The notes: a model not told the origin generated them from the sequence alone. A stretch of 64,000 bases of DNA from Candidatus Omnitrophota bacterium (GCA_041650835.1 JBAZKL010000004.1:102900-166899); one strand, 5' to 3'; shown: positions 10,161 through 62,402, counted from the stretch's first letter. Numbers and translations: made by a program.

Positions 10161-10172
10161 AATTAAATAAAT

Positions 10173-27631: not shown

Positions 27632-30319
27632 TTATTTACGCGCGAGCGATTTCCAGGTTTCCATCGCCCACAGGGGGAATGATGAAATAACAAGCGCGAT
27701 CATCCAGTCCAATAATCCGAGCGGTTCGGTCTTAAAGATCACCTGCAGGAAGGGCACATACACCACAGCCATCTGCAATACAAACGAAACCAGGACCGCC
27801 AGGATAAGCAATTTATTTGTCCCGATGCCTATCTTAAATATCGATTTCTCCATATTACGGCAGTTAAAGGCATGGAAGAGCTGCGAACAGGCAAGCACGA
27901 TAAACGCCGCTGTCCGCGCCCTGCCGATCCCTTCTTTTTCCACGAATAGGACAATAACAAAAGCGAGCAAACTGCAGAAGGCGATAGCCGCCCCTTGAGC
28001 AAGCAGCAGGAATATATTCTTTTTTGTAATTACAGCTTCACCCGATCTGCGCGGGGGAAGGCTCATGATATTAGGGTCAATAGGCTCAACGCCTAAAGCA
28101 AGCGCGGGCATCCCGTCAGTGATAAGGTTTACCCACAAGATATGTATCGGCAAGAGTGGTGCGGGCAACCCCGCGAGCGAAGAAACGAACATCACCAATA
28201 TCTCACCGACGTTGCACGAAAGCAGGTAATGGATAAACTTTTTTATATTATCGTAAATCCCTCTGCCTTCCTCAACCGCGGAAACAATCGAAGCGAAATT
28301 ATCATCGGTGACAACCATATCGGATACTTCTTTGGTAACATCGGTCCCGGTGATCCCCATAGCAACACCGATATCGGCTTCCTTGACCGCGGGGGCGTCA
28401 TTAACGCCGTCACCGGTCATCGCGACAACCTCGCCGTGCCTGCGCCAGGCGCGCACAACCCTCAATTTATGTTCCGGGGAAACACGGGCATATACTGAGA
28501 TGTTTTTCACCTGTTTAAACAGCTCATCATCGCTTAAACTATCCAGCTCTTCCCCGCTTAAGGCTATAGAATCATTGGTGAAAAACCCCAGCGCCCGCGC
28601 GATGGCTACCGCGGTAAACTTATGGTCTCCGGTTATCATGACCGTTTTTATACCCGCGGACATACATTCCTGTATCGCCTTTTTAACCTCCTGGCGAGGC
28701 GGGTCGATCATCGCGACAAGCCCGGCAAATATCAGGTTTGTTTCAACTGCCGCCGCGTCATATTTCTTTTCGCTTTTATCCAGTTCCTTATAAGCAACCG
28801 CCAAAACGCGCATTGCCGCTTCAGAAAGTTCATTATTGACCCGGCGGATATTTTCCTTATCCTGTTCGGTTAAATTCCTCACCACCCCTTTTTCAATAAT
28901 AGAGCCGCAATCATTTAACAGCATATCCGGGGCACCTTTGACATACGCCAGGATTTCTCCTTTATGTTCGCGGATAAGCGTCATTTTTTTTCGTTCTGAA
29001 TCAAAGGGTATCTCATCGATAAAAACAAACTCTTCTTCTAACTTTTCTTTTGTAAAGCCTGCCTTACCGGCAGCGGTCAGAAGCGCGCCTTCGGTCGGAT
29101 CCCCCACGATCTTATAAGCTCCCTCACTGGCGATCAGCTGCGCGCCGTTACAGAGGACCGCGCAACGCAGCAAATTCTTCAGGTCAGGAAAATCGGCAAG
29201 GGTGATCTGCCTGTTACCAAACATAAAATCCCCTTTCGGCTCGTACCCGATACCGCTTACCGCGAAGATGCTTCCTCCCGTAAATATCTTCTGCACGGTC
29301 ATTTCATTCTTAGTCAACGTCCCTGTTTTGTCTGAGCAAATAACCGTAGCGCACCCCAAGGTCTCAACAGACGGCAGTTTCCGGATAAGCGCGTGGCGTT
29401 TTACCATACGGTGCACACCTAACGCTAAGGCGATCGTGACTACCGCGGGAAGTCCTTCCGGGATAGCCGCGACCGCCAGACTGACTGACGTTAGGAAAAC
29501 ATCAACAAGTTTACCCCCATGCAGCCAACCGAGCAGAAAAACCATCGCCACAAGAACAAAACATATATATACGATCCATTTCCCGAATTCTTCCAGCTTT
29601 TTTTGTAAGGGAGTCGTTTCATGGCCGGCTGTCTGCACCATCCCTGCTATTTTACCAAGCTCTGTCTGCATGCCGGTATAGGCGATCAAAGCCCGCGCCT
29701 TCCCCGTAGCTACAGAAGTCCCCATATAAACCATATTAAAGCGTTCAGCAAGCGGGATATTCTTTTCTTGCAAAGCAGTTATATTTTTAACCACCGGGCT
29801 TGACTCTCCGGTAAGGCTGGCTTCCTGAGCCCTCAAATTCGAGCTTCCCCAGACAATACGGCTGTCCGCGGGGATACTGTCACCGGCTTCAAGCTCGATG
29901 AGGTCCCCGGGGACTAATTCCGGCGACGGAATAAGATGATGCTGGCCGTCACGAATGACCTTTGAAACGGGATTCGATAATTTTTTTAACGCGGCGAGGG
30001 ACTTTTCAGCCCGGTATTCCTGTATGAAGCCAAGGAACGCGTTGATGATCACGATCCCGATAATAGCAAACGCGTCAACCCATTCCCGGAGGAACCCCGA
30101 CACAGCAGCCGCCCCGACCAAAACCCAGACGATAAAATCCTTGAACTGCTCAAGAAAAATATGCAGCGGACTAACACCTTTTTTCTCTTGAAGCTGATTA
30201 GCTCCATACTCTAAAAGGCGTTTTTTAACGGTTTCTTCGCTCAAGCCGGCTTTACTATGGCTGCCAAGCGCCAAAACCGTCTCTTCCACGGTAAGATTAA
30301 AAAAACTTTTCCCCTGCAT
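27632..30319 (-). CDS. P-type ATPase, P2A (SERCA-like) Ca2+-transporting
   Basis: DKTGTLT phosphorylation site, [12 protein letters not shown] hinge, TGES. 895 aa with about 10 TM helices. Confidence 0.85.
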   Translation of the reverse strand: MQGKSFFNLTVEETVLALGSHSKAGLSEETVKKRLLEYGANQLQEKKGVSPLHIFLEQFKDFIVWVLVGAAAVSGFLREWVDAFAIIGIVIINAFLGFIQEYRAEKSLAALKKLSNPVSKVIRDGQHHLIPSPELVPGDLIELEAGDSIPADSRIVWGSSNLRAQEASLTGESSPVVKNITALQEKNIPLAERFNMVYMGTSVATGKARALIAYTGMQTELGKIAGMVQTAGHETTPLQKKLEEFGKWIVYICFVLVAMVFLLGWLHGGKLVDVFLTSVSLAVAAIPEGLPAVVTIALALGVHRMVKRHALIRKLPSVETLGCATVICSDKTGTLTKNEMTVQKIFTGGSIFAVSGIGYEPKGDFMFGNRQITLADFPDLKNLLRCAVLCNGAQLIASEGAYKIVGDPTEGALLTAAGKAGFTKEKLEEEFVFIDEIPFDSERKKMTLIREHKGEILAYVKGAPDMLLNDCGSIIEKGVVRNLTEQDKENIRRVNNELSEAAMRVLAVAYKELDKSEKKYDAAAVETNLIFAGLVAMIDPPRQEVKKAIQECMSAGIKTVMITGDHKFTAVAIARALGFFTNDSIALSGEELDSLSDDELFKQVKNISVYARVSPEHKLRVVRAWRRHGEVVAMTGDGVNDAPAVKEADIGVAMGITGTDVTKEVSDMVVTDDNFASIVSAVEEGRGIYDNIKKFIHYLLSCNVGEILVMFVSSLAGLPAPLLPIHILWVNLITDGMPALALGVEPIDPNIMSLPPRRSGEAVITKKNIFLLLAQGAAIAFCSLLAFVIVLFVEKEGIGRARTAAFIVLACSQLFHAFNCRNMEKSIFKIGIGTNKLLILAVLVSFVLQMAVVYVPFLQVIFKTEPLGLLDWMIALVISSFPLWAMETWKSLARK

Positions 30320-31823: not shown

Positions 31824-31871
31824 CAAAACCATCTCCTTACGGTTAATGGTTTTGCGCTAGAGGAAGAAAAA

Positions 31872-31960
31872 CGGAGAGGCTGGGATTTGAACCCAGGGTC
31901 CCAGTTTCCCAGGACAACTCATTAGCAGTGAGTTGCTTTCGACCGCTCAGCCACCTCTCC
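31872..31960 (-). tRNA. tRNA-Ser (anticodon GCT), type II with a long variable arm
   Basis: Reverse complement folds by hand: acceptor GGAGAGG/CCTCTCC, anticodon arm ACTCA-CTGCTAA-TGAGT, T arm CTGGG-TTCAAAT-CCCAG, 89 nt. Confidence 0.85.
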
Positions 31961-31991
31961 AAATTTCTCTAATTTTACTGTCGGAAATTTG

Positions 31992-33314: not shown

Positions 33315-33815
33315 TTAGAGCGCCTCAAACGACTCGCGCATGGCGCTCACCAGCGAATTAACGGACCGGCTGACTTCTTTGGAAAGCTCCTCGCCAAATT
33401 GAAGGGTCTTAGGCTGGATACCGACAATAAGGCAATCGCATTTGACCGACTGTATCAGGTAATCAGCCATAATATTGGCAGGCAGGCGATGCGTGCTGAA
33501 AGTTATACCGCCGATCTCCTCTATCCCGAACATCGAAACTTCACCCGGCGACTTGCCGAAATCAGCGCAATCGATGATGATCAAATGTGACGGCTTGAAC
33601 TTCTTGATCTCTCCCGTAAAATTCTCGGGAGCTGTTCCGCCGGCAAAGAATTTAAATTTAACTCGACCGCGGCATGCTTTAAGCCCTGTCTTTAAATACT
33701 CAGCCACACGCATACCCGCCACATCATCGCTGCAGATATCGGAACCTACCCCCAAAACAGCGATACGCCGGGCGCCGGAAAGTTTATTTTTGAGTTTTTT
33801 CTTGAGGAGCCGCAT
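33315..33815 (-). CDS. hycI: [NiFe] hydrogenase maturation endopeptidase (HycI/HyaD family)
   Basis: GVGSDICSDD, DCAD and STH motifs. Last gene of the hydrogenase operon. Confidence 0.7.
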   Translation of the reverse strand: MRLLKKKLKNKLSGARRIAVLGVGSDICSDDVAGMRVAEYLKTGLKACRGRVKFKFFAGGTAPENFTGEIKKFKPSHLIIIDCADFGKSPGEVSMFGIEEIGGITFSTHRLPANIMADYLIQSVKCDCLIVGIQPKTLQFGEELSKEVSRSVNSLVSAMRESFEAL

Positions 33816-34161
33816 GAAAGGTGACCTTTAACTTATCGCGCTTTAACTGGGCCAGCTCGAAATGCCCCGTGTATTCCAGGGCTTTTTTAGGGCAGGAATC
33901 AACGCATTGCGCGCAGTAAATACATTTTCCCATATCGATCCGGGCTTCAAACTTCTTATCCTCTATCTTATTGATGACGATGGCCCCCGACGGACAGTCG
34001 CGCATGCACATCTTACAGCCGATACAAAGCTCCGCGGTAAAATGCAGCCGCCCCCGGAACCCCTCGGCCATTTCATGCTTTTGATGGGGATAATTAATGG
34101 TAACCGGCTTTCTCACCAGGTACCGCAACGCTTCTCTAAGGATCTTTCCCGGCTTTTTCAT
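33784..34161 (-). CDS. NuoI-like 2x[4Fe-4S] ferredoxin subunit of the membrane-bound hydrogenase
   Basis: CIGCKMCMRDCP and CIYCAQCVDSCP. Confidence 0.8.
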   Translation of the reverse strand: MKKPGKILREALRYLVRKPVTINYPHQKHEMAEGFRGRLHFTAELCIGCKMCMRDCPSGAIVINKIEDKKFEARIDMGKCIYCAQCVDSCPKKALEYTGHFELAQLKRDKLKVTFHAAPQEKTQK

Positions 34162-35099
34162 TTTACAAAAAACTCTTTGACAGCAAGGTTAAATAAAACC
34201 TGCAGGAACGCAACAGGCGCGAAATACTTCCAGCATAAATTGATCATTTGGTCGAGCCGTAAACGCGCGAGGATCGAACGTAAAACAGCCAGTATGCTTA
34301 CTATGAAAAACACTTTAGCGACATACACTATAAAATTTATTCCCGCGGGCAGGTTCAACCCGAACGGCAGGAAGACCGCCGCTAAAAGAGACGCCCCCAC
34401 CACCATTTCCACGCTGATCGCCAGCCTGAACGTCGCCAAAAGGCGCCCGCCGTATTCCGTAAAACATCCCGCCACCACTTCAGTTTCCGCTTCCGGGATA
34501 TCAAAGGGCGTTTTCTCAAGTTTCCCCAGTAACGCGATCAAGGAAATAGCGAATCCCGTCAGGTTACACATCCAATACCAGGGATGCCTGCTGTAAAAAG
34601 AGGCCATCTCACTGAGCGACCAGGTATTTGCCAGGAGCGCGGACGCCAGTATCGCCATAAAAAGCGGGACCTCATAAGCAAAAAGCTGTGTCAGGGAACG
34701 CACCGCCCCGATCATCGCGTAAACCGAGCGCGAATACCAACCGCCGAGGAAATAAGTCAGCGTCGGAATAGTTAAAAGGTATAAAACAACGACCACATCG
34801 CCGTTAAAAGAAAAAAGGGCCTGCGTGTTCCAGAGAGCGATATAAAAGAACGCGGTTATCGACGTTGTCAGCGCGATTATCGGCATCCCCTTAAAAACAG
34901 TCATATCGGCAGCTTCCGGCACAACCTCTTCCTTGCCCAGCAACTTAATGAAATCCGCGACCGGCTGGAACCAGGGCGGGCCCATCCTGTTCTGGATGCG
35001 CGCGTAGATCCTGCGGTCAACAAATTCAACCGCAAAGGCAAAAGCAAACAAAAACAATATACCGGGAAAAACTAAAATTTGAAAAAGTGTTTTTAACAT
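34158..35099 (-). CDS. NuoH/HycD-like integral membrane subunit
   Basis: 313 aa, about 8 TM helices, NuoH-family conserved region ...RIQNRMGPPW... Confidence 0.75.
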   Translation of the reverse strand: MLKTLFQILVFPGILFLFAFAFAVEFVDRRIYARIQNRMGPPWFQPVADFIKLLGKEEVVPEAADMTVFKGMPIIALTTSITAFFYIALWNTQALFSFNGDVVVVLYLLTIPTLTYFLGGWYSRSVYAMIGAVRSLTQLFAYEVPLFMAILASALLANTWSLSEMASFYSRHPWYWMCNLTGFAISLIALLGKLEKTPFDIPEAETEVVAGCFTEYGGRLLATFRLAISVEMVVGASLLAAVFLPFGLNLPAGINFIVYVAKVFFIVSILAVLRSILARLRLDQMINLCWKYFAPVAFLQVLFNLAVKEFFVK

Positions 35100-35100
35100 T

Positions 35101-36336
35101 TTATCTGTTCTTGAGTTTCCGCAACTTCCTGTTTAACCCTGAAAAATCGATCCCCCGCTGTTTATGCCATTCAATACTCTGCACATGCAGCTCTTCCCAA
35201 GGAAGAACCGTTGTCTTGCGGTTGTCCAGATCATGTATCGAGATCATCCGGTCGGTGCAGGAAAAACACGGGTCGATCGCCGCGACCACGATCGGCATAT
35301 CCGCCAGGTAGCGGTCCTCAAGCATGTGGGAGACTGCCTGAATATTGGCTAATGTCGGGGGCCTGACCTTGACGCGGTCGGGCTTATCCGTGCCATTGGC
35401 TTTCACATAATGCACATCTTCCCCGCGCGGGGCTTCATAACGGCTCACTGCTTCTCCCGCGGGGATCTTCCGCGGGGCCTTGACCGTTACCGGCCCGCAA
35501 GGGAGGTTCGCGATTATCTGACGGATGATCTTATAGGACTCCATCAATTCCAAAAGGCGCACGACTGTCCTGCCATAAACATCACAACGGGTATCGGTGA
35601 TGACCTTAAAATCAAGTTCTCCATACGCCGCGTACGGGTCGTCATGCCGGACATCCCGCTTTACGCCTGAGGCGCGCGCCGTCGGTCCGACCGCGGCTAA
35701 TTTTATCGCGTCATCATATTTCAACATACCGACCCCCGACAAACGCTTGATGATCGTGACCTCTTCCTGGGCGACACCGACGTAATATTTAGTCCGTTCC
35801 TCCAAAGTATCCATCGCTTTGAGGATATCTTTTTTCTGCTCCTCTGAAACATCGCGGCGCACGCCGCCTATCGTATTGATCCCGTAATTGACCCTGTTAC
35901 CGGTCAATTCCGCTAAAATATCCATAACGATCTCGCGGTCGCGCCAGGTATACATCAACAACGTATCAAAACCGATCTCATGCCCCGCCACGCCTAACCA
36001 CAATAAATGGCTGTGCACCCGCTCTAATTCAGCGACGAGCGTGCGGATATACAAAGCGCGCTTAGGCACGTCAAGCCCCGCGATCTCTTCGACCGCCTGG
36101 ACAAAACACGTTGAATGCGAATGAGAACAAATACCGCATATTCGCTCGATAAGATACAAGTCCTGGATATAGGTGCGTTCTTCGCAGGCTTTTTCAATGC
36201 CGCGATGATTATATCCTATCTTTATATTGATCGAGGTTATCTTTTCACCCCGCAGGGTGATCATAAAGCTTTCGGGTTCTTTCAATGCCGGATGCTGCGG
36301 CCCCAGCGGTATACGGACATCTCCGGGTTTATACAT
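35101..36336 (-). CDS. Group 4 [NiFe] hydrogenase large subunit (NuoD homologue with intact Ni-Fe ligands)
   Basis: N-terminal RICGICSHSH (RxCGxCxxxH) and C-terminal DPCFSCTDR (DPCxxCxxR), followed by a ~45-aa extension for HycI processing. Start set at MYKPG (36336, AAGGAGA 7 nt upstream). The ORF track extends to 36399. Confidence 0.85.
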   Translation of the reverse strand: MYKPGDVRIPLGPQHPALKEPESFMITLRGEKITSINIKIGYNHRGIEKACEERTYIQDLYLIERICGICSHSHSTCFVQAVEEIAGLDVPKRALYIRTLVAELERVHSHLLWLGVAGHEIGFDTLLMYTWRDREIVMDILAELTGNRVNYGINTIGGVRRDVSEEQKKDILKAMDTLEERTKYYVGVAQEEVTIIKRLSGVGMLKYDDAIKLAAVGPTARASGVKRDVRHDDPYAAYGELDFKVITDTRCDVYGRTVVRLLELMESYKIIRQIIANLPCGPVTVKAPRKIPAGEAVSRYEAPRGEDVHYVKANGTDKPDRVKVRPPTLANIQAVSHMLEDRYLADMPIVVAAIDPCFSCTDRMISIHDLDNRKTTVLPWEELHVQSIEWHKQRGIDFSGLNRKLRKLKNR

Positions 36337-36811
36337 GTGGATTCTCCTTATTTTCCTGAGGCTCCTGCGAATGCCATTCCTTACGCAGCGGGAACTCACC
36401 CTTCGGCCAATTGTCCGGCAGCGGGTAGCGATGGCCCGCAGGCAATCCTTCTACCTGTATCCCTAACAAGTCAACCAGCTCGCGTTCATACGCTTCAGCG
36501 CTGGGAAAACAACTTGTTACCGTTGTGATCAGGGGATCTTCACGGGGGACACGCACGCGCAGCAGGCACATCTGCCCTGTTTCCCTGCAAAGATTGTATA
36601 TCACGCCGAACATGTTATTGCCCTCATCCATACCCGTGATAGCGGAAAGGATGGAAAATTGGCATTTCGTGATCAGATACCGGAAAACTTCAAGGAATTT
36701 ATCCCGGGGAACATCGACAAAGATCCTGCGCTGCCGCTTTACCGTTATGGCAGACGCTAAATACGGGAACTTTTCCCCGAGCTCATTTTTAATACTCTCT
36801 TCTAAAGACAT
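36329..36811 (-). CDS. NuoC-like (30 kDa) subunit
   Basis: 160 aa with conserved ...AEAYERELVDLLGIQ... segment. Confidence 0.7.
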   Translation of the reverse strand: MSLEESIKNELGEKFPYLASAITVKRQRRIFVDVPRDKFLEVFRYLITKCQFSILSAITGMDEGNNMFGVIYNLCRETGQMCLLRVRVPREDPLITTVTSCFPSAEAYERELVDLLGIQVEGLPAGHRYPLPDNWPKGEFPLRKEWHSQEPQENKENPHV

Positions 36812-36828
36812 TTCCTTACCCTTTCGGC

Positions 36829-37305
36829 TTATTTAAGTTCCGGCAGAGCTGTTTTTTTCTTCGGCTCTTCCTTAAGGCTCCCCAGTAATTTTACCACGCC
36901 GTCAATGATCGCTTTGGGGCTTGCCGGGCATCCCGGGATATACGCCGATACCGGTAGAACTGTATCAATTCCGCCCAATACGTTGTAACAGCCGTTAAAC
37001 ACTCCGCCGCTGCAGGCGCAGGTGCCGACCGCGACCACAAATTTAGGTTCCGCCATCTGTTCATAGATCATTACCAGCCGCTCTTCGATCTGCTTGGTGA
37101 CCGGCCCGGAACAGATCAAGACATCGGCATGGCGCGGGGTCCCTTTTAAAACCACACCGAAGCGTTCCAGGTCATAATGAGGCGTCAAAGACGCGATGAT
37201 CTCTATATCGCAGGCGTTGCAAGCCCCGGTATTAAAGTGCAGTATCCAGGGAGATTTAATGCGCGCCCAATTAACGATCCTACTCAACGTTCCCATGCTA
37301 ATCAT
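36829..37305 (-). CDS. [NiFe] hydrogenase small subunit (NuoB homologue)
   Basis: GACNACDIE (hydrogenase-type CxxC rather than the CC of NuoB), GTCACSGG and GCPASP cluster-binding motifs. Confidence 0.8.
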   Translation of the reverse strand: MISMGTLSRIVNWARIKSPWILHFNTGACNACDIEIIASLTPHYDLERFGVVLKGTPRHADVLICSGPVTKQIEERLVMIYEQMAEPKFVVAVGTCACSGGVFNGCYNVLGGIDTVLPVSAYIPGCPASPKAIIDGVVKLLGSLKEEPKKKTALPELK

Positions 37306-37639
37306 CCTTCCTTAAAAGAATAAACAAACCGATGACCGCGCCCAGGATGTAAACGACAGCGATGGCAAAAGTCTCGAGCGTCTCCGTCGGGACCGTCGCG
37401 ATCATCAAAGCGACAACGTGCAGCAGGGTAAAGAAAAAAGCAAACGGGAAAAACTGCGTGTAATCCGGCTGTATCAGGTGACCGGAGAAATCCTCACCGC
37501 AGGAATACGCTTTCTTTGAATCACTACTCCTTTTATCTTTACGGAATGCTACTTTAGAGAACAAAAACGATAAAAACAATATCGCAGAAAAAACGATCAA
37601 AAAAGCTACCGGGGGAGTAAGTAATAAATTCTGGGGCAT
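37298..37639 (-). CDS. NuoA-like small membrane subunit
   Basis: 113 aa, 3 TM. YSCGEDFSG...FFPFAFFFTLLHVVA resembles NuoA's YE(S/C)G...FDVE pattern. Confidence 0.5.
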   Translation of the reverse strand: MPQNLLLTPPVAFLIVFSAILFLSFLFSKVAFRKDKRSSDSKKAYSCGEDFSGHLIQPDYTQFFPFAFFFTLLHVVALMIATVPTETLETFAIAVVYILGAVIGLFILLRKDD

Positions 37640-37644
37640 CGCGG

Positions 37645-37965
37645 CTATCCTTTTAAATTATTTAATTTACGCGTATCGATTGTTTGATTATGCTTAAAAA
37701 TACATAAGATCACGCCACCCGCGACGACCATGATCACGACTTCAACAACGATCAAAGTAATGACCAGCGCCTGCGCTAACGCCATATTGCCGGTTATATA
37801 GCCGACAAGGATGATAAGCAGCGTCACCCCTTTGATCATGATCTCTACCCCGATGATCGCCCTGAGCAGGTTAAACGTTGCCAGGATGCAATATAAACCG
37901 GTAATAAATAAAAGACAGATAAAAATACTGAACGGCCAGAATAACTGGTTGAACATCGGGTTCAT
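37645..37965 (-). CDS. NuoK/MrpC-like membrane subunit
   Basis: 106 aa, 3 TM, with a conserved mid-membrane Glu (GVEIMIKG). Confidence 0.65.
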   Translation of the reverse strand: MNPMFNQLFWPFSIFICLLFITGLYCILATFNLLRAIIGVEIMIKGVTLLIILVGYITGNMALAQALVITLIVVEVVIMVVAGGVILCIFKHNQTIDTRKLNNLKG

Positions 37966-38447
37966 CGGTTCTTCTCCTTAAAAAGGACGACTACGCCAAA
38001 CGCCCCTGCCAGGAGCAGGACGACCTGCCCTAAAAGGTCGAGGTGGCGTAAATTCCATAAAACATTCCTGACATCCTGTTCATAGGCGGCAGGAGATGAC
38101 GTAAGGGAAAGCGACATTTTGACCATACTTAATAAAATACCCGCCAGAATGATTATAAAGGGCAGATACCAGAATTTCCCTAAACGTTCTTTCTGCCGGT
38201 TGAGCAATTGGTCCTGGGTCAGGCGCTGGGTAAAACTAATGGTCGTGACAAAAATAACCGATATCAAACCGGAACAAACCGAGAGCTCGAAAACAGCGGC
38301 TAACGGAGAATTCAGGCGGAACATGATTATGGAAAGGAGCGCGCTCGTCATAGCCAACCCGATGACCGACCTGACCAACCGGGTAGTCATGACCGTCCAT
38401 ACCGCTAAAATAATAAGTATGATAAGTAAACTTAAGTTCAGTGCCAT
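37962..38447 (-). CDS. NuoJ-like (possibly MnhB-type) membrane subunit
   Basis: 161 aa, about 5 TM. AAVFELSVCSGLISVIFV and a C-terminal LLAGAFGVVVLF helix are reminiscent of NuoJ. Confidence 0.45.
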   Translation of the reverse strand: MALNLSLLIILIILAVWTVMTTRLVRSVIGLAMTSALLSIIMFRLNSPLAAVFELSVCSGLISVIFVTTISFTQRLTQDQLLNRQKERLGKFWYLPFIIILAGILLSMVKMSLSLTSSPAAYEQDVRNVLWNLRHLDLLGQVVLLLAGAFGVVVLFKEKNR

Positions 38448-38448
38448 A

Positions 38449-39879
38449 TTATCGTAATAAATCCCCTATAGGTAAAATAAACGAATTTAATATTACCGGG
38501 AACAATAAACCGACCCCGATGATTATCGCCGCCAGCAGCACCTGAGGAACGATCAAGCCCGCGGATACTTCTTTTACCTGTTCTAAACCTTCACGCAGGA
38601 CCCCAAAGAAAACCCTGCGCTGCATGGAAAGGAAATACGCCAGGGTAATAACGCTGGCTAAAAGGGCTCCTGCCGCGTAATAATAATGGCCGGCATTGCA
38701 CAGCGCTATAAAAATGATCAGCTTGCTCCAAAAACCGGACAAAGGCGGGACGCCTGCCGTAGAGAGAAGCGCTATAACCGACGTCGCCCCGGTTACCGGC
38801 ATACGCGCCGACAATCCGCCCATTTTATCCATATCGCTCGTACCCAGTTTTTCCTCAAGGCTTGCGGCATTGATGAACAAAAGAGACTTAAAGATCGCGT
38901 GGTTAAAAAGATGAAAAACCGCGCCCGCCAGGGCAAGCGGGCTGGCTACGCCCAAAGCCAATATAATATAACCGACCTGGCTGATACTTGAATACGCCAG
39001 CATCCGCTTTATATCATTTTGTCCCAGCGCGGCAACCGCGCCGATGATGATAGAGGCGAGCCCCGAAACCATCAATATATTCTGTACCGGCGCGGTCACT
39101 TCGAACACGGAAATAACTAAGCGTATCAAAACATAAACTCCGGATACTTTCGTGACAATGCCGGCCAAAAGCGTAGAGACCGCCGCGGGAGCCGCTGAAT
39201 AGGCGTCCGGCAGCCATCCATGGAACGGCACGAGCCCGGATTTGATAAATAAGCCGCATAAAAACAATCCTACGCCAAGTTTCAACAAAAAGCCGTTCGC
39301 CGGATCGCTAAAGGAGCCGTATATGGCTGAAAATGTCGTCCCGCCGGACACCAAAATAAAAAGAGCGACCGCGGTAAGCATTAAAACGGTCGCTATCGAT
39401 GAAAGAATAATGTATTTAAACGCCCCCTCCAGAGCCAGGAGGTCCTTTCTCTTGGCGATAAGCGTAAAAGACGCGACCGCCGTCACCTCCATAAATACAT
39501 AGAGAGAGAATATATCGGTGGTCATTACCGTGGCGTTCATGCCGATAAGCAGGATCAATACCAGGTTAATGAAATTAAACCTGCTGTTTTCTTCAATGAT
39601 CGTGTATCTGCCGACGATAAGCGCGACAAAACAGACGATGGCGATGGAAAAAAGCATGACAAGCGTTATAGGGTCTAACGCCAGCTTAAAAGCGAAGAAC
39701 GGCCCCAGGGGATCAGGTGTCACGCTCCAGAAAACCAGAGGATGCAGGACAACCAGGATCATTTGATAGAAACACAATATTGCCGCCAGCCAGAATGCCA
39801 GCCGCTTCATAATGGCCCTTAACGGCAGGTTCAATAACGAAACAATGAATAGCGGCAGCAGGATCAGTAATGATAACAC
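38449..39879 (-). CDS. NuoM/MrpD-like antiporter-type subunit
   Basis: 476 aa, about 14 TM, conserved antiporter-module Lys/Glu pattern. Confidence 0.75.
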   Translation of the reverse strand: MLSLLILLPLFIVSLLNLPLRAIMKRLAFWLAAILCFYQMILVVLHPLVFWSVTPDPLGPFFAFKLALDPITLVMLFSIAIVCFVALIVGRYTIIEENSRFNFINLVLILLIGMNATVMTTDIFSLYVFMEVTAVASFTLIAKRKDLLALEGAFKYIILSSIATVLMLTAVALFILVSGGTTFSAIYGSFSDPANGFLLKLGVGLFLCGLFIKSGLVPFHGWLPDAYSAAPAAVSTLLAGIVTKVSGVYVLIRLVISVFEVTAPVQNILMVSGLASIIIGAVAALGQNDIKRMLAYSSISQVGYIILALGVASPLALAGAVFHLFNHAIFKSLLFINAASLEEKLGTSDMDKMGGLSARMPVTGATSVIALLSTAGVPPLSGFWSKLIIFIALCNAGHYYYAAGALLASVITLAYFLSMQRRVFFGVLREGLEQVKEVSAGLIVPQVLLAAIIIGVGLLFPVILNSFILPIGDLLR

Positions 39880-39937
39880 CTTTTAAAACCTCCTCATGAA
39901 CGAAAGAATTCCGGGGAACCCATCATCCCTCCCCGTG

Positions 39938-41767
39938 CTATTTTAATACATAGTATACGACAAGGGCGGAGCCGGCGAGCGCCCAAACAATGTAAAGCGC
40001 GTAATTACCGTTATGCAGGCCGCGTAAAACGCCTGAAGATCCCTGGGTGAGCCAAACGCAGAACCGGTCATAAAAGCTATCGATCATACGGTCGAGCCAC
40101 CACCCGGCCCGGGAGATAACCTGGGCCGCTTTTAATCCGATATCATACGGGTCGAACGCGCGCGCCTCGGCGCGGTCATAAATACCCGATAACACCGGGG
40201 CATGGCGTATATGCTCCGAGGCCTTATGGCCTCCCCCCATTATTTTAGCGCTGGTAACATGATGAAACAAAGCGCCCAACAATACCAGTATAGAAACCAA
40301 AACGATCATTCCATTGCCGGGGAAGCCTGAAAAATCATGGCCTTCAAGCGCGGCGGCACTCAAAACAGGCTGAATAAAATGATGAAGCGGTAACGTATTA
40401 TAAACACCGAAAAGTATACAGCAGCCGGCAATGACTATCATCGGGAACAACATCGCGATACTTGATTCTTTGACATTTTTGTGCTCTTCTTTAAGCTGTC
40501 CCAGGAACGCGGCATGCCCCAATTTCAAGAAAGAAGCCGCGGTAAAAAACGCGCCTAAGATAGCGGCGAGGTAAAACAAGGAGCCACGCTCTATTGCCGC
40601 GTCGAAAACCATTTCTTTTGAAAAGAAACCGTTAAAGGGCGGCACGCCTGAGATCGAGGCGGCAGCCACAAGAAAACAAATAAAGGTAACCGGCATCTTC
40701 CTTCCTAAACCGCCCAATTTTTCCAGGTCGGTCGTCCCAACAGCTTTTTCCACTGAGCCGGCGGTAAGGAATAAACAGCTTTTATACATCGCGTGATTGA
40801 CCATATGGAACAGGCCGCCGACAATCCCGATCGGCAGGCACGTCCCGATCCCGAGTACCATATAACCGACCTGGCTTATCGCGTGATAAGAAAGTAATTT
40901 CTTATAATCTTTCTGCACCAAAGCCATCATGACCGCTAAGATCACGGTAATTGAACCGATACACATCAAAAGCGTACTCAACCATGAATGGGCGCTCAGT
41001 TTAAACATATCCAATGAGATCCGCGCGAGAAAATAAATACCCAGCAATTTCTCAAGAGACGCAGGTAATATCGCCATGAACGGCAAAGGCGCGTCAGCCG
41101 CTGAATCAGGTATCCAGCTGTGGAACGGCATACTCCCTGCTTTGGCAATAGCCCCGACCATCAGCAATACGAACGCGAGGCTTCCTATCGCGCTTGAAGG
41201 GATTAATATATCAGAGATCTTTAATGTCCCGGCGAGATGCCCTGTCAAACCGATACCTGCCATCATGCAAAGGTCTGATATGCCGACAATGATCAATGCT
41301 TTTACCGCGGTTTTATAAGCGCCTTTATTTCCGATCGCGATCATGCCGAAGAGCGTCAAAAGCAACCCTTCCCAGAAAAACAATAAGAGAATAAGGTTAT
41401 CTGCCAACACCGCGCCATTAACAAAAGCAAGAGAAAGCAACAGGTACGCGTAAAACTGGTTCAACTTTTCCTTATTACGCATAAAACTCATTGAATATAA
41501 AGAGATTAAGAAGCCAAAGAACGCGGCAGCCAGCAGGATAAATCCGCTAAAATGATACAATCTCAGAGAAAACTCCATGCCAAAGCCTGCCCAGGGCAAA
41601 GAAACAACAATATCCTGTTTAAACAATAAAACAGCTAACAAAAAGTTAAAAGCGGTCGCGGCAAAAGTAATAAGCTCCTTGACTCCCGGTGCTCTCCTCA
41701 AGGCAAGTACGAGTAAACCGCAAAATAAAGGTATATATATAGGTAAGAATATCATATTATCGGTCAT
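39938..41767 (-). CDS. NuoL/MrpA-like antiporter-type subunit
   Basis: 609 aa with a C-terminal extension, as in NuoL. Confidence 0.75.
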   Translation of the reverse strand: MTDNMIFLPIYIPLFCGLLVLALRRAPGVKELITFAATAFNFLLAVLLFKQDIVVSLPWAGFGMEFSLRLYHFSGFILLAAAFFGFLISLYSMSFMRNKEKLNQFYAYLLLSLAFVNGAVLADNLILLLFFWEGLLLTLFGMIAIGNKGAYKTAVKALIIVGISDLCMMAGIGLTGHLAGTLKISDILIPSSAIGSLAFVLLMVGAIAKAGSMPFHSWIPDSAADAPLPFMAILPASLEKLLGIYFLARISLDMFKLSAHSWLSTLLMCIGSITVILAVMMALVQKDYKKLLSYHAISQVGYMVLGIGTCLPIGIVGGLFHMVNHAMYKSCLFLTAGSVEKAVGTTDLEKLGGLGRKMPVTFICFLVAAASISGVPPFNGFFSKEMVFDAAIERGSLFYLAAILGAFFTAASFLKLGHAAFLGQLKEEHKNVKESSIAMLFPMIVIAGCCILFGVYNTLPLHHFIQPVLSAAALEGHDFSGFPGNGMIVLVSILVLLGALFHHVTSAKIMGGGHKASEHIRHAPVLSGIYDRAEARAFDPYDIGLKAAQVISRAGWWLDRMIDSFYDRFCVWLTQGSSGVLRGLHNGNYALYIVWALAGSALVVYYVLK

Positions 41768-43254
41768 TTCTGCATCACCAGCATCTGTTGGACAACATTT
41801 GCTACAACCTGATTAGGATAATAAATAAAGATCCCGCCGGCTAAAGACAGGGCCGCGAGCAAGCCGACACAAAAAACCATCAGCGGATCCCCTTCTTTTA
41901 CCTCTTTGGACTTAGCTTCTCCTAAGAAAACCAGAGTAAATACTCTCAAAAGATAAAGTATCGTCAAGATGGCTCCGATCAAAAATATGCCCGCGAGAAA
42001 AAGATGCCCGCCTTGTAAAGCTCCCGCCATAACCATATATTTACTAAAAAAACCTCCAAAAGGAGGAATACCCATGACTGAGAACGCGCAAAATAAAAAT
42101 GATGCCGCGGTTACCGGCATCGTTTTTGCCAAGCCGCCCAATTTAGTAATGTCTTTGATCTTTGTATTTTGCTCTACTATCCCCGCGCATAAGAACAACC
42201 CCGCTTTGGCAAGGCCGTGCATCAAAATATATAACAAACCTCCGGCAATACCTACTTCATTGCCGATCGCCAGCCCCAGGAAGATAAAAGCAATCTGGCT
42301 GATCGTCGAATACGCGATGATCCTCTTAAGATCAGTGTCAACTAACGCCGCGGCCGCGGAAACAAGAGCGCTGATCCCCGCGATAAAAGGGACCACGCTG
42401 TGCCAATAATCAAGCAGCGGGATAGTTACCACAAACAAACGGGCAAAGGCGTAAACGCCGATCTTAACCAGTACTGCCGCGTGCAGCAGCGCGGTCACCG
42501 TTGATGGAGCGACACCGGCGTCAGGAAGCCAGGTATGAAAGGGTAACGTCGCTGACTTGGAGAATATCCCTGCCAGGATCAATCCAACGGCAAGCACAGA
42601 AACAGGTTCGGCCTTAAAACGTTCATGGATCACCGCGAGATCGAACGACCCTGCCTGTTGATAGATCAAGACAAAACCTATCAACATCATTAAAGCGCCG
42701 AATACCGTAATTAAAAACGATTTATTCGCCCGGATGACATCGGTTTTCGCCCTGAAGAACCCTATGAGCCGCCAACTCGCCAGAGCGGTCATTTCCCAGA
42801 AAACATAAAGGAAGATCAAATTACCCGCGTATATCAGCCCCATCATCGAGCCAAGGAACAAAACTACCATCATATAATACTCATTTTGGTTCTCGTAATG
42901 GCTGATATACCCGAATGAATACATGACAATGATAGCGCTGATCAAGGAAGATACGACCGCCATAAAAACAGCCAGCGCGTCGGCGCAAAAAACAAAGTTA
43001 AAGCCTAAAGGAAGGATACGGGTAGAGATAAGGGTTTTCCCGCTTAAGACAAAAGGAGACAGGGAAAGAGAAATAGCCAGAGGAAAGAGGACAAGCAACA
43101 ACGCCAGTATATTTCTCACCGGTTTAGAGAACTTCCCGGCCAACGGTAATATAAAAGCCCCTATTAAAGGGGCTAGAACTGCTGATAGTATCATGATATT
43201 AATACGCCGCTTAAAAAGCCGCTTAAAATAAAAAAGTCTTCTAGCATATTCCAC
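41764..43254 (-). CDS. NuoN/MrpD-like antiporter-type subunit (first gene of the operon)
   Basis: 496 aa. The real start may be the internal MILSAVLAPL at 43194. There is a 4-bp overlap with the next gene. Confidence 0.75.
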   Translation of the reverse strand: MEYARRLFYFKRLFKRRINIMILSAVLAPLIGAFILPLAGKFSKPVRNILALLLVLFPLAISLSLSPFVLSGKTLISTRILPLGFNFVFCADALAVFMAVVSSLISAIIVMYSFGYISHYENQNEYYMMVVLFLGSMMGLIYAGNLIFLYVFWEMTALASWRLIGFFRAKTDVIRANKSFLITVFGALMMLIGFVLIYQQAGSFDLAVIHERFKAEPVSVLAVGLILAGIFSKSATLPFHTWLPDAGVAPSTVTALLHAAVLVKIGVYAFARLFVVTIPLLDYWHSVVPFIAGISALVSAAAALVDTDLKRIIAYSTISQIAFIFLGLAIGNEVGIAGGLLYILMHGLAKAGLFLCAGIVEQNTKIKDITKLGGLAKTMPVTAASFLFCAFSVMGIPPFGGFFSKYMVMAGALQGGHLFLAGIFLIGAILTILYLLRVFTLVFLGEAKSKEVKEGDPLMVFCVGLLAALSLAGGIFIYYPNQVVANVVQQMLVMQK

Positions 43255-43403
43255 CAGAAGACACCCTTGTCTATAGCTTAGTTCTATGTTAGTTAAACTT
43301 GTTTACCATGGAATCTATCCAATAAATGTAACATACACTCATGGATTTGTCAAATAAATTTAAGGTGAGCGGGCTAACTCCAACTTACTTATAAATAAAA
43401 TAC

Positions 43404-43476
43404 GCGCCCAACAGGAATCGAACCTGTAACAACCAGTTCCGTAGACTGGTGCTCTATCCAATTGAGCTATGGGCGC
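43404..43476 (-). tRNA. tRNA-Arg (anticodon ACG)
   Basis: Reverse complement is GCGCCCATAGCTCAATTGGATAGAGCACCAGTCTACGGAACTGG..GTTCGATTCCTGTTGGGCGC. Cloverleaf checked by hand. 73 nt. Confidence 0.85.
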
Positions 43477-43798
43477 ATCTAATTACTTACATCCGCTCAT
43501 GGTGAGCCTTTCGACGCACTTCGTTTGCTCAGGGTGCTGAGCCTGTCGAAGCACATGGTCGAACCATGGGCGCATGAATTTCCCCGGGTTCTAAACATAA
43601 GAAACCCGAGGTAAGGATCCTTTAGAGAAACTTAATTATACCTACTTTTCACTAAGCTGTAAAGCAGGATTTTCTCAAATGTGCGGGCAATATTAAAATG
43701 TCCTATTTTCCGGTTTTAAAGAGCATTTGCAAAAACTTCTTCCCTTATCTGTCTTATGCGACAGATGCATGGATGGAATAAATCAGGATAGCTTAACG

Positions 43799-44395
43799 TT
43801 ATTTGGGATCATTAAACTTGAACGTCTTAACCATATGATCAAATGCCTTACTGAACCTGTCAAATCCCTGCTCCGTGTTTTCATACCTTAAAGAATATGC
43901 CTTACCCGGTTTCATAAAAATAATTATTTTCTCTTTAACCGGTATCAGTTTTGCATCCACGCTATAAATCTTATCCATCGCCTTATACGACAAGAGGATT
44001 TCCCGGGCATCAAGGCCCATAACATCAGCTTTAGACCTTGACAACAATTTTGCATCTTTAAATTTCAGTCTTTTCTTCACCAGATCATCTGTAAGCGCCT
44101 CAAGAGTTTCTAATACATCTATCTTAGAGAGGTCTTGCGCGGTTATGGCTATTTTAGGCTTATAGTTTTCACCCTTACTATCTTCAAAGAAAACTACACT
44201 CGCGTATCCTTTTTGAAGATCCTTGTTTTCGCGGTAAAGCCATTGAGAAATATAATCTATACCAATGTTTAATTCCTGATTTTTACCGATATATTGCTCG
44301 TAGCGCAGACTCCCGCCGGTACAGCCATAATTATTCACCATGCACATCACCCCTATCAGCAGAAATAAATAAACATTGTTTATCGTAGGTTTCAT
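43799..44395 (-). CDS. Lipoprotein, function unknown
   Basis: Signal peptide plus lipobox (..NNYGC). Confidence 0.45.
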   Translation of the reverse strand: MKPTINNVYLFLLIGVMCMVNNYGCTGGSLRYEQYIGKNQELNIGIDYISQWLYRENKDLQKGYASVVFFEDSKGENYKPKIAITAQDLSKIDVLETLEALTDDLVKKRLKFKDAKLLSRSKADVMGLDAREILLSYKAMDKIYSVDAKLIPVKEKIIIFMKPGKAYSLRYENTEQGFDRFSKAFDHMVKTFKFNDPK

Positions 44396-44404: not shown

Positions 44405-45601
44405 TTAATAAGACGGATAACCGGCATACATCACGGCCACAACGTCATGTAAAGAAGAGCCTCCCTGCTCATAAAGGCTCAATACATAATCAAGTTCGTC
44501 ATTGGTCTGGGTGCCTTTTTTTTCTTGCCAAAATTGAGCCTCCCGGGTAAAAGCATTGTTTTCCTGATCAATGCTGTCACCGAGCACCTGCTCACCCGTA
44601 ACGGGATCTGTGTACCAGCTTAAATCCGATTCAGCAACTCCTAAACGCGCTGTAGTATCAGCGACCCACGCTGCCGTATTATGAGAATAATCCGCATGTA
44701 AAGCTTCGTGAACGACAACTGACGCGATTGCTTCTGCCGACCAGGTACTACCTATAGAAGAATCAATAAATATAGCATTATTTTCGTGTGGATCATCAGG
44801 ATAAAAATCAGACCACCAAGATGGAAACCATTGACCTAAAGCTCCGCTGCTTAAATCCCCGTAATAAACATGAATGTCTTCAGCTTGTATCAAAGCATAC
44901 AACTCGCCTGCAATAGCAGAATCGCTCATACAAGCAAGAACATCGCTTAAGTCAATCAACTCTGCCGCACTACCTCCGCCGTCACCGCCCCCGCCGCCGC
45001 CATCATCACCGGCACCACCGCCGCCGCCACCTCCGCCACCGCCACCGCCTCCGCCGGAACCACCTCCCCCGCCGGAACTCTCGCCGCTGGAAGCGCTCCC
45101 CCCTCCACTGACACCACCGCCGCCGCCAGTGATAGTTGTACCGCCCTCATCTTGCCCGCTGCTGCCGCCTCCACCGCCGCCGCTACCTCCGATGTACGGC
45201 CCCGCGGGCAACACTGAACCCCCGCCATCCATCACAATAACGGTTGAGTCGGTATTAACGCTCTCTGAATCGATATCACGGCCGATACGCTTGGCTATTA
45301 CGACGAAATCATCATCGGTAACATTGACGACCCGGTACTCATAATATTTAGGGCGGATATTTAATTCCAACAGCTTATTGATCTCTTCGGTATTATCAGC
45401 CGCGACAAAAGAACCAGACTCGATTTTATGAGCCTTCTCCGCGTCGCGGATCGCCTTAATGCTCACGATCGCATCGGTTTTAATGGATTTGTTAATAACA
45501 TGCAGATAGGAGAAAAATCCTCCGGCAGCTAAAACCGCAATGATAACAACCGCAATTGACAACTCGATAAGATTAAAACCTTTTTTATTATGCACCGTCA
45601 C
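44405..45601 (-). CDS. Prepilin-type N-terminal protein with an ~80-residue poly-Gly linker and a C-terminal HExxH (zincin-like) domain
   Basis: KKGFNLIELSIAVVIIAVLAA is a class III signal with G|F and Glu+5. A long GGS/GGG tract follows. VVVHEALHADYSH is present. Confidence 0.6.
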   Translation of the reverse strand: MTVHNKKGFNLIELSIAVVIIAVLAAGGFFSYLHVINKSIKTDAIVSIKAIRDAEKAHKIESGSFVAADNTEEINKLLELNIRPKYYEYRVVNVTDDDFVVIAKRIGRDIDSESVNTDSTVIVMDGGGSVLPAGPYIGGSGGGGGGSSGQDEGGTTITGGGGGVSGGGSASSGESSGGGGGSGGGGGGGGGGGGGGAGDDGGGGGGDGGGSAAELIDLSDVLACMSDSAIAGELYALIQAEDIHVYYGDLSSGALGQWFPSWWSDFYPDDPHENNAIFIDSSIGSTWSAEAIASVVVHEALHADYSHNTAAWVADTTARLGVAESDLSWYTDPVTGEQVLGDSIDQENNAFTREAQFWQEKKGTQTNDELDYVLSLYEQGGSSLHDVVAVMYAGYPSY

Positions 45602-59784: not shown

Positions 59785-60036
59785 TTACGCGACCTCGAGC
59801 TTGTCTAAATAAATCCCGTCATCATCGATAGAGTCTGACTGATGAACGGTTATTTTTGCCCCGGACAAAAGGGGAGATCTTGCCATCGCCTCGAAACAGA
59901 ACTCCAAATGCTCCTTGATATGATGATTGAACTTCCCGCACATGATCTCGACGCTGAGCACTTTTTTAAAATCGTGTTTTTGTTTTTGCAGCTCTATCGC
60001 TTGGAATATCCCCTCGACCAACGACAATTCATGCAT
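59785..60036 (-). CDS. HypA-like N-terminal domain protein lacking the C-terminal zinc ribbon
   Basis: MHELSLVEGIF... Ni-binding N-terminus. 83 aa with no Cys pairs. Last gene of the hypFCDE operon. Confidence 0.5.
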   Translation of the reverse strand: MHELSLVEGIFQAIELQKQKHDFKKVLSVEIMCGKFNHHIKEHLEFCFEAMARSPLLSGAKITVHQSDSIDDDGIYLDKLEVA

Positions 60037-60064
60037 AACAGCCTCCTTTTGGATACGGTTGTTT

Positions 60065-62211: not shown

Positions 62212-62383
62212 CTTCCTCGTTTAATTTATTGATGGCAAACCCCGCGTGCACGATAACGTATTGCCCGGGGAGCACATCTTCCAACAGGTCTATAGCTACC
62301 TCTTTATCAACGCCCATAAAACTGACCCTGGCTACGTTGCCCGTCAGCACCTCTTTTACCAACCCCGGGACAGCAAGACACAT
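62171..62383 (-). CDS. hypC: Hydrogenase maturation chaperone HypC
   Basis: MCLAVPG N-terminus. 70 aa. Confidence 0.85.
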   Translation of the reverse strand: MCLAVPGLVKEVLTGNVARVSFMGVDKEVAIDLLEDVLPGQYVIVHAGFAINKLNEEDACDALKEFEQFI

Positions 62384-62402
62384 ATTTTGACTCCTTTTTC
62401 TG

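Follow-up and report, generated by a model that had tools for sequence, protein, structure and literature searches.

In this work, we analyzed a 64,000-nucleotide stretch of DNA from a Candidatus Omnitrophota bacterium (GCA_041650835.1, JBAZKL010000004.1:102900-166899; hereafter the window, to which coordinates refer unless another locus is named), focusing on a minus-strand operon at positions 33315-43254 that encodes 11 structural subunits and a HycI protease, and in which all 11 core subunits of complex I have homologues. Our results indicate that this operon most likely specifies a ferredoxin-coupled, reversible and ion-translocating group 4 [NiFe] hydrogenase, whose 11 subunits match the complex I core one for one. 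We infer the ferredoxin partner, the direction of the reaction, the ion specificity, the stoichiometry, and an arrangement of the arms resembling complex I rather than the membrane-bound hydrogenase (Mbh). It represents, among bacteria, a kind of enzyme that is already known, although its gene order and subunit flavor are distinctive; the family is already catalogued as group 4g, a class that the window enzyme would take from the published assignment of its orthologue in Ca. Velamenicoccus archaeovorus. The present analysis adds the precise anatomy of its subunits, the strictness of their conservation, and the relation to two kinds of sibling operon, i.e., those with two antiporter-like subunits and those with a large subunit devoid of the Ni-Fe cysteines (Cys-less).

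Operon organization

ORF calling (open reading frames) and translation delimited 12 contiguous, tightly packed and co-oriented ORFs, which were assigned to families with Pfam and NCBIfam, and to subtypes by sequence and profile scores against the PDB. In order of transcription, these are:

41764-43254, minus strand: antiporter-like subunit 1 (ant1), MrpA/NuoL-type, 496 residues from GTG; Pfam Proton_antipo_M (1.7e-71) and Proton_antipo_N
39938-41767, minus strand: antiporter-like subunit 2 (ant2), NuoL-type, 609 residues; Proton_antipo_M, and the NCBIfam NuoL model end to end
38449-39879, minus strand: antiporter-like subunit 3, MrpD/NuoN/MbhH-type, 476 residues; Proton_antipo_M and PDB scores
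37962-38447, minus strand: NuoJ-equivalent (J), 161 residues, five predicted transmembrane (TM) helices; Pfam Oxidored_q3 and MbhD
37645-37965, minus strand: NuoK/MrpC-like subunit (K), 106 residues; Pfam Oxidored_q2 (2.3e-16)
37298-37639, minus strand: NuoA/ND3-like subunit (A), 113 residues, three TM helices and a long TM1-2 loop; Pfam Oxidored_q4
36829-37305, minus strand: NuoB/MbhJ-like hydrogenase small subunit (B), 158 residues; Pfam Oxidored_q6 (1.8e-30)
36329-36811, minus strand: NuoC/MbhK-like subunit (C), 160 residues, a separate gene with no fusion to D; Pfam Complex1_30kDa (3e-25)
35101-36336, minus strand: [NiFe] large (catalytic) subunit, NuoD-like (D), 411 residues; Pfam Complex1_49kDa and NiFeSe_Hases
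34158-35099, minus strand: NuoH/MbhM-like membrane anchor (H), 313 residues; Pfam NADHdh (4.2e-75)
33784-34161, minus strand: NuoI/MbhN-like ferredoxin subunit (I) of the 2x[4Fe-4S] type, 125 residues; Fer4 family matches
33315-33815, minus strand: HycI-type maturation endopeptidase, 166 residues; Pfam HycI (5.4e-18)

The resulting order, ant-ant-ant-J-K-A-B-C-D-H-I-hycI, agrees with an initial annotation of this DNA in its 11 Nuo-homologous subunits plus a protease on the minus strand, and in the succession J-K-A-B-C-D-H-I-protease. The labels N-L-M given there to the first three genes were mistaken, as the PDB and NCBIfam scores identify them as an L-type, an L-type with a lateral helix, and an MrpD/N-type subunit. 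The anchor (NADHdh) and the three Proton_antipo_M genes share the operon with the catalytic subunits, the arrangement that marks group 4. No MbhABCF/Mrp Na+ module (MrpE/F/G-like genes) was found in the operon, where the 12 assigned ORFs leave no gene-sized gap. The first gene most likely starts at ATG 43194 (476 residues) and not at GTG 43254, since its homologues align from about residue 20, and the large subunit most likely starts with MYKPGD at 36336, because the resulting 411 residues equal the length of its homologues.

Distribution and conservation

The family was surveyed by a protein search, by scanning a single genome from each GTDB species, and by tblastn with the 12 window proteins. 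The search with the large subunit returned at least 8000 significant matches, the best 120 clusters being 74-97% identical and mostly from Omnitrophota and Sedimentisphaerales; at least 515 genome stretches (one genome per GTDB species) encode a relative of it. The conservation counts given throughout rest on the best 80 of these at least 515 loci, which are 71-95% identical and belong to Omnitrophota, Phycisphaerae/Sedimentisphaerales, Saganbacteria, Margulisbacteria and Krumholzibacteria. One of them, locus L047 (73-75% identical, with the same 12-gene operon), comes from Ca. Velamenicoccus archaeovorus LiM, whose genome is closed. According to tblastn, the identical 12-gene order is found in every sufficiently long locus among the 80, across five phyla. 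The operon is not rare, and its gene order is conserved far beyond chance. The initial annotation had presented this as a hydrogenase worth classifying, a view that is largely overtaken: with at least 515 stretches, an invariant subunit set and an orthologue published as 4g (Seymour et al., 2023, PMC10066038; Williams et al., 2021, PMC8542988), the large subunit falls for the most part within a well-populated, known subgroup having the same set.

In the flanks of 62 loci, a gene for a membrane H+/Na+-pyrophosphatase (HppA) was present in 27 (e.g., L015:14209-16494), ExbB/ExbD genes in 15-16, and F-type ATP synthase genes in 5-9. The pyrophosphatase and ATP synthase neighbors point to a role in membrane energetics; in the window itself, no HppA, ExbB/ExbD or F-type ATP synthase gene adjoins the operon. 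Regarding partner modules, a dedicated electron-input (dehydrogenase) module was found neither in the operon nor in the window; genes for formate dehydrogenase, carbon monoxide dehydrogenase, CooF or a HycB/HyfA-like protein are absent from the operon, and none of these, nor NuoEFG or an FpoF-like gene, was recurrent in the flanks of the 62 loci.

Catalytic core and maturation

As the initial annotation had stated, the translated large subunit carries both Ni-Fe motifs, RICGICSHSH and DPCFSCTDR, followed by a C-terminal extension of 48 residues; both motifs and a tail of 36-71 residues were present in all 80 large subunits. The protein is matched by the Pfam domains Complex1_49kDa and NiFeSe_Hases alike. 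In the PDB, MbhL (6cfw_L, E 3e-100, 339 bits) ranks above HycE (270 bits) and Nqo4 (215 bits), and the identities are 49% to MbhL, 50-52% to the large subunits of the type found in Hfo, an archaeal 11-subunit hydrogenase described below, 35% to HyfG (35-37% over HyfG and HycE), and 29% to Escherichia coli NuoD. On the NCBIfam NuoD model (NF004739), the window large subunit reaches 347.7 bits, below the cut-off of 360; in rounded values, Hfo-type sequences obtain 365 bits, the window 348, the Anaerolineales and Methanoregula relatives 330 and 326, Pyrococcus furiosus MbhL 281, and E. coli HycE 242. The window and Hfo-type large subunits score unusually high on both the NuoD and FpoD family models, so that this group 4 neighborhood resembles NuoD measurably more than the classic hydrogenases do. 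The idea of an evolutionary intermediate, which the initial annotation had proposed, has already been published for the archaeal Hfo (PMC7886697).

The small subunit possesses the hydrogenase-type CxxC spacing and not the CC form, as had been noted from the sequence: its TGACNACDIE segment aligns with GGCNGCEIE of HycG and GGCNACEIE of HyfI, as opposed to GLSCCYVEM of E. coli NuoB. The cysteines of GTCAC and PGCP are also present, each small-subunit cysteine is kept in at least 74 of 75 members, and the protein is predicted to carry one [4Fe-4S] cluster. The NuoI-like subunit, with two CxxCxxCxxxCP motifs whose eight cysteines are all invariant in 74 members, is the probable point of electron entry. 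The score of the NuoH-like anchor against MbhM (140 bits) is about level with that against Nqo8 (131 bits).

With regard to maturation, the operon is closed by a HycI gene in 64 of the 80 loci, while some of the remaining contigs break off short of its position, and residues D30, D31, D82 and H109 of HycI are invariant across the family; the 48-residue tail of the large subunit is presumably removed by this protease. The position of HycI at the end of the operon and the location of the hyp genes, said to be about 16 kb away, were both borne out, the measured distance being 16.5 kb:

59785-63566, minus strand: hyp cluster comprising hypA, hypE, hypD, hypC and the C-terminal (Kae1-like) half of hypF; Pfam HypA, AIRS/AIRS_C, HypD, HupF_HypC, HypF_C and HypF_C_2

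Within the wider hyp region (59785-63982, minus strand), HypA has 83 residues and the C-terminal half of HypF 387, with tatC directly before the latter. The N-terminal half of HypF (acylphosphatase, Zn-finger and YrdC domains) is a separate gene in the relative L085; the window lacks this half, and hypB was not seen in it either.

Membrane subunits

The three antiporter-like subunits belong to distinguishable types. Subunit 1 finds its best PDB matches in MrpA (7qru_A, 206 bits), NdhF and Nqo12, and has no C-terminal lateral helix. Subunit 2 covers with residues 4-607 positions 3-609 of the 615 of the NCBIfam NuoL model, aligns with NuoL of Mycobacterium smegmatis including the C-terminus, and has full-length NuoL chains and MrpA as its top Foldseek matches; its AlphaFold model (predicted local distance difference test score, pLDDT, 80.5) comprises TM15 (H486-510), short helices, a lateral helix (H540-582) and TM16 (H590-608). 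For subunit 3, the best matches are MbhH (6cfw_H, 205 bits), MrpD and MbsH. The charged relay residues (Glu in TM5, Lys in TM7, TM8 and TM12, His/Lys in TM11) are invariant or nearly so in all three. In subunit 1, those of TM5, TM7, TM11 and TM12 are invariant in 66 members, the exception being the TM8 Lys (59 of 66); in subunit 2, the NuoL-specific equivalents of D178 and D400 are kept in 60 of 62 members, and the exception among the relay residues is one TM11 His (35 of 62); and in subunit 3 the relay residues are kept in at least 67 of 68. In some relatives (P0393, P0397, P0400), e.g., in a metagenome-assembled genome of Margulisiibacteriota, ant1 and ant2 are fused into a protein of about 1000 residues, and an antiporter-like fusion of 1094 residues occurs in a Methanoregula relative (L086:3776-7060); the ant1-ant2 fusion implies that these two subunits would sit side by side in the complex. 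The initial annotation had counted three antiporter-like subunits among the traits of an evolutionary intermediate; such a set in a hydrogenase has been known since E. coli Hyf (PMC3144371).

Because the single-sequence Pfam scores of subunits A and J were marginal (23.2 bits against a gathering threshold of 23.3, and 31.1 against 33.2, respectively), family alignments were built for both. The profile of the A family matched, along its full length, only ND3/NuoA chains in the PDB, and a comparison using hhalign with NuoA-type sequences (Hfo-type, Asgard and E. coli NuoA) gave a probability of 98.0% (E 3e-13, 103 columns). The invariant Y-x-C-G-E of this subunit aligns with YECG of mitochondrial ND3, and the motif, as TYACGE, is also present in the NuoA-like subunits of the Bathyarchaeota Hfo-type and Asgard operons. 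The J-family profile matched MbsD (1.5e-10), MbhD (1.7e-8) and E. coli NuoJ (0.02) in the PDB, its C-terminal part weakly matching MbsE; the Pfam MbhD score of the single subunit was 23.7 bits, and hhalign against NuoJ-type sequences gave a probability of 95.7% (E 1e-8, 129 columns). The homology of both subunits to NuoA and NuoJ thus held under the profile check. Judging by these matches, J looks like a fused MbhD+MbhE-type protein, and is therefore a full five-helix equivalent of NuoJ that leans by sequence to the Mbh/Mbs/Mrp lineage. Its Glu54 in TM3 is invariant in 72 members. In subunit K, E41 (72 of 73 members) and E75 (73 of 73) align with the glutamates E36 and E72 of E. coli NuoK. The conservation of residues, motifs and gene order points, therefore, to a functional enzyme under strong purifying selection.

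The notion that classic enzymes of this kind lack counterparts of NuoA and NuoJ, on which the initial annotation had relied, is outdated: MbhI carries a loop and helices equivalent to those of Nqo7 (PMC8165549), HycC has a C-terminus homologous to ND3, a similar fusion being reported for MbsH' (PMC9474812), and the J subunit of the window is itself closer to MbsD/MbhD.

Phylogeny and related operons

An exhaustive search of representatives at 50% identity yielded 974 proteins at E <= 1e-30. Several related operons illustrate the range of gene sets, with identities referring to the large subunit:

L085, sibling with fewer antiporter-like genes (two-antiporter sibling), 61% identical: J-K-A-B-C-D-H-I-hycI
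L086, Methanoregula form, 54% identical: split J, K, the 1094-residue antiporter fusion plus one more, A-B-C-D-H-I-hycI
L087, Anaerolineales form, 52% identical: J-K-ant-ant-A-B-C-D-H-I-hycI
L084, Bathyarchaeota form, 50-52% identical: Fpo order A-B-CD-H-I-J-K-L-M-N, plus an FrhB-like gene
L088, Asgard form, 50% identical: A-B-CD-H-I

Thus, NuoA-like and J/K-like subunits are the rule across this group 4 neighborhood. In a neighbor-joining tree of 135 large subunits, with 100 bootstraps on 42 taxa, the window family was monophyletic (support 100), grouped with the two-antiporter sibling (91), and grouped with the Methanoregula type to the exclusion of MbhL and Hfo (85). Only these shallow nodes were supported: as to the next relative, Hfo was nearer in 57 of the 100 bootstraps and MbhL in 34, the bit scores of the window large subunit being 443 against Hfo-type sequences and 339 against MbhL.

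Three Cys-less relatives of the large subunit (P0139, P0173 and P0191; locus L089:102-3919; 39-45% identical) adjoin the window clade in the same tree. P0139 keeps the order K-A-B-C-D-H and a 47-residue tail, and displays ERLCGPGSC and VDLHYFGSGR as its motifs. Relatives of the P0139 type therefore indicate that the Ni-Fe site was lost inside this neighborhood, giving an Ehr-like derivative.

Comparison with known systems

Group 4g has been described as loosely clustered and putatively ferredoxin-coupled (PMC5037454), and came out as polyphyletic in a 2026 analysis (PMC13582414). Within the Omnitrophota, a 'Group 4g, Mrp-linked' Mbh was reported in two genera (Williams et al., 2021, PMC8542988) and a '4g nickel-iron membrane-bound hydrogenase' in V. 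archaeovorus (Seymour et al., 2023, PMC10066038), and a group 4 enzyme of Saganbacteria with nearest relatives in Zixibacteria and Omnitrophica was called 'enigmatic' (Matheus Carnevali et al., 2019, PMC6349859). In the literature, which we covered incompletely, no paper was found that notes the full 11-subunit set in the bacterial Omnitrophota/Phycisphaerae clade, general '4g, Mrp-linked' labels being all that the searches turned up.

The nearest described system is Hfo, the 11-subunit Fpo/Nuo-like [NiFe] hydrogenase of Bathyarchaeia (HydDB 4g, lineage 4g-6), which has related clusters in Pyrodictium delaneyi and Ca. Methanomethylicus, and which was proposed to close the gap between hydrogenases and complex I (Loh et al., 2021, PMC7886697). 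Both enzymes retain the Ni-Fe motifs intact and are built from homologues of the 11 subunits NuoA, B, C, D, H, I, J, K, L, M and N, and neither includes the MbhABCF/Mrp Na+ module or NuoEFG; the small subunit of the window is 69% identical to that of the Hfo-type locus L084. However, L084 follows the Fpo/Nuo order, has C and D fused, and carries an FrhB-like gene downstream, whereas the window operon places membrane-subunit genes first, keeps C and D separate, contains HycI, and has no FrhB-like gene. The A subunits of the two show no BLAST match, the YACGE motif and profile similarity being their only link; the J subunit of the window is MbhD/MbsD-like and its antiporter-like set is of the L, L and D types. 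Finally, the hosts of Hfo are archaeal and those of the window family bacterial.

Mbh is ferredoxin-dependent and H2-evolving, and operates without an extra dehydrogenase module. The P. furiosus enzyme (group 4d, 14 subunits, PDB 6CFW) is the closest solved match for the catalytic, H and third antiporter-like subunits, and MbhD is second to MbsD as a match for the N-terminal half of J. Nevertheless, Mbh has a single antiporter-like subunit, in contrast to the three of the window, which include one of the NuoL type with a long lateral helix. It also differs in having its J-equivalent split into MbhD and MbhE instead of a single 161-residue protein, and MbhI where the window encodes a three-helix NuoA-like protein with YxCGE. 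The Mrp-derived Na+ module of Mbh (MbhA-C and F; PMC7886697) is not encoded in the window operon, and the peripheral module of Mbh is placed differently relative to the ion-translocating module than that of complex I (PMC8165549).

With the 11-subunit core of complex I/NDH-1/Fpo, the window enzyme shares the 11 subunit families, three antiporter-like subunits, the NuoL-type lateral helix, the NuoK glutamates, the NuoJ TM3 Glu and the NuoA loop motif. Complexes of that kind act on quinone or methanophenazine. In them, the C-terminal pair of Ni-Fe cysteines is missing (Moparthi and Hagerhall, 2011, PMC3144371), whereas the window enzyme retains all four Ni-Fe cysteines along with a small subunit of the CxxC type, a cleavable tail and HycI. 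The last common ancestor has been predicted to be Ni-Fe-bearing and to have 11 subunits (PMC3144371). As for E. coli Hyf (hydrogenase 4, or FHL-2, of group 4a), it is likewise a [NiFe] enzyme with three antiporter-like subunits, a NuoK-like domain and a NuoH-like anchor, but its C and D subunits are fused and its partners are HyfA and formate dehydrogenase; no BLAST-detectable counterpart of the A, J and K subunits of the window was found in the hyf locus.

Proposed mechanism and alternative readings

The electron donor is probably reduced ferredoxin, as it is for Mbh and Ech. In the proposed mechanism, the Hyp proteins would insert the Ni-Fe(CN)2CO cofactor into the large-subunit precursor, after which HycI would cut off the 48-residue tail behind DPCFSCTDR. 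Reduced ferredoxin would then dock on the NuoI-like 2x[4Fe-4S] subunit, and electrons would pass from it through the single [4Fe-4S] cluster of the NuoB-like subunit to the Ni-Fe site of the NuoD-like subunit, where protons would be reduced, reversibly, to H2. This redox step may be coupled to the translocation of H+ (or Na+) via the NuoH-like anchor and subunits A, J and K to the three antiporter-like subunits, which the NuoL-type lateral helix is predicted to clamp together.

Some considerations count against this proposal. In the sources consulted, neither a hydrogenase of this clade nor an 11-subunit group 4g enzyme is reported as purified (PMC7886697). By our own estimate from standard redox potentials, the energy released from ferredoxin to H2 is too small for four pump sites against a normal membrane potential, and a lower stoichiometry, Na+/H+ exchange by some of the subunits, or frequent running in reverse are possible outcomes of this shortfall. 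The structure predictions cover single chains and accommodate a complex-I-like and an Mbh-like orientation of the arms alike, and the lateral-helix region of subunit 2 (residues 511-609) was modelled at low confidence (pLDDT of about 46-76).

It is possible, if somewhat unlikely, that the same enzyme works in the opposite direction, as an H2:ferredoxin oxidoreductase driven by the proton- or sodium-motive force and serving CO2 fixation or acetogenesis, in which case the three antiporter-like subunits would give extra driving force at low H2 pressure. Such a reverse direction is known for Eha, Ehb and Ech of methanogens, but MbhL, the closest solved relative, runs in the H2-evolving direction. 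This reversal was proposed for the 11-subunit Hfo by Loh et al. (PMC7886697); moreover, acetogenesis is predicted for many 4g-bearing Omnitrophota, in which the Wood-Ljungdahl pathway is partial or complete (PMC10066038), the frequent adjacency of pyrophosphatase and ATP synthase genes is consistent with a membrane that has to be energised, and four pump sites would be, by the reasoning given above, too many for the step from ferredoxin to H2. Conversely, the published view of the Omnitrophota is that excess reductant is disposed of as H2 (PMC8542988, PMC10066038). Group 4 enzymes are reversible, and therefore the sequence alone cannot decide the direction.

The remaining readings concern the identity of the enzyme. 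The operon might specify only the hydrogenase module of a formate hydrogenlyase or of a CO-dependent complex (4a, 4b or 4c-like), whose dehydrogenase would be encoded elsewhere; its three antiporter-like subunits recall E. coli Hyf/FHL-2, and a related group 4 hydrogenase of Saganbacteria adjoins a molybdopterin oxidoreductase and cooF (PMC6349859). Nonetheless, genes for formate dehydrogenase, carbon monoxide dehydrogenase, CooF or HycB/HyfA-like proteins are neither in the operon nor recurrent in the 62 flanks, identity to HyfG/HycE is 35-37%, and C and D are not fused, which makes this very unlikely. The formate hydrogenlyase reading was thus rejected for its lacking partner genes and the low HycE/HyfG identity. 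Hardly credible is also an 11-subunit oxidoreductase of the complex I/NDH-1/Ehr type, acting on a quinone or another acceptor and retaining vestigial cysteines, although the NuoD model score lies just below its cut-off (347.7 bits against 360), several database names read NADH-quinone oxidoreductase subunit D, and the Cys-less P0139, with the same local gene order, is found near the clade. What speaks against it is that the four Ni-Fe cysteines, in their RxCGxCxxxH and DPCxxCxxR context, and the cleavable tail occur in 80 of 80 relatives, that HycI ends the operon in most loci and hyp genes are present in the window, that the small subunit is of the CxxC type, and that MbhL and HycE outrank every NuoD in the PDB. 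A quinone-reducing complex I was rejected on account of the cysteines, HycI and the CxxC small subunit.

Evolutionary and ecological implications

How a proton-reducing hydrogenase gave rise to quinone-reducing complex I is a long-standing question that has been argued mainly from the structures of Mbh, Mbs, formate hydrogenlyase and complex I. An enzyme with the full complex I core and a working Ni-Fe site would be the most informative comparator, showing whether the arm orientation, the coupling through the NuoA loop and a three-pump arm predate the loss of nickel. We consider it doubtful, yet worth stating, that the clade is no side-branch of the archaeal Hfo and instead stands beside the predicted 11-subunit Ni-Fe enzyme with a complex-I-type membrane arm; in such an arm, the NuoH anchor is predicted to lie beside A, J and K, with the three antiporter-like subunits clamped. 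If this were true, the Cys-less relatives of the P0139 type, having the same gene order, would show the step from hydrogenase to non-hydrogenase within the clade.

Omnitrophota, anaerobic Phycisphaerae and relatives of the Cyanobacteria harbor this family in abundance. It is therefore probably also a major, uncharacterized route by which H2 is turned over in groundwater, peat and anoxic sediments. Ca. V. archaeovorus, which carries the operon, accounts for about two-thirds of the metagenome reads in a stable limonene enrichment culture, the report of which contains nothing specific on this hydrogenase, expression included (PMC12583861). With the clade uncharacterized and a stable culture in which this host predominates, determining the native structure could be both feasible and informative.

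Other features of the window

Additional elements around the operon are the following:

43325-43353, minus strand: promoter-like site (TTGACA, 17 nucleotides, TG, TACATT) lying between tRNA-Arg and the first gene of the operon, from a consensus scan only and not evidence of function
43402-43477: tRNA-Arg(ACG), between the upstream gene and the promoter region of the operon
31871-31961: tRNA-Ser(GCT), about 1.4 kb downstream of hycI, past tadA-like deaminase and GIY-YIG genes

With 24 found and 16.7 expected, the scans for promoters and terminators lie close to the shuffled background, and little weight can be placed on them. The two tRNA genes flank the operon-bearing region on both sides.

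Upstream of the operon, a gene at 44405-45601 (minus strand) encodes a protein of 398 residues whose N-terminal helix is pilin-like and which contains about 80 residues of Gly-rich sequence, and lies just upstream of a gene for a PsbP-like lipoprotein (43799-44395). Positions 6000-12000 are low in G+C (0.36-0.37 at 6-8 and 10-12 kb, compared with about 0.46 overall), lie beside a tRNA-Asn gene (9877-9951), and include genes for a TIR-domain protein (8398-9375) and an AAA_15/AbiEii-like ATPase (10173-11879); this stretch looks like a small defense or mobile islet. Two P-type cation ATPases (27632-30319 and 52583-55150) and a cation/proton antiporter of the GDT1 family (58433-59089) are also encoded in the window.

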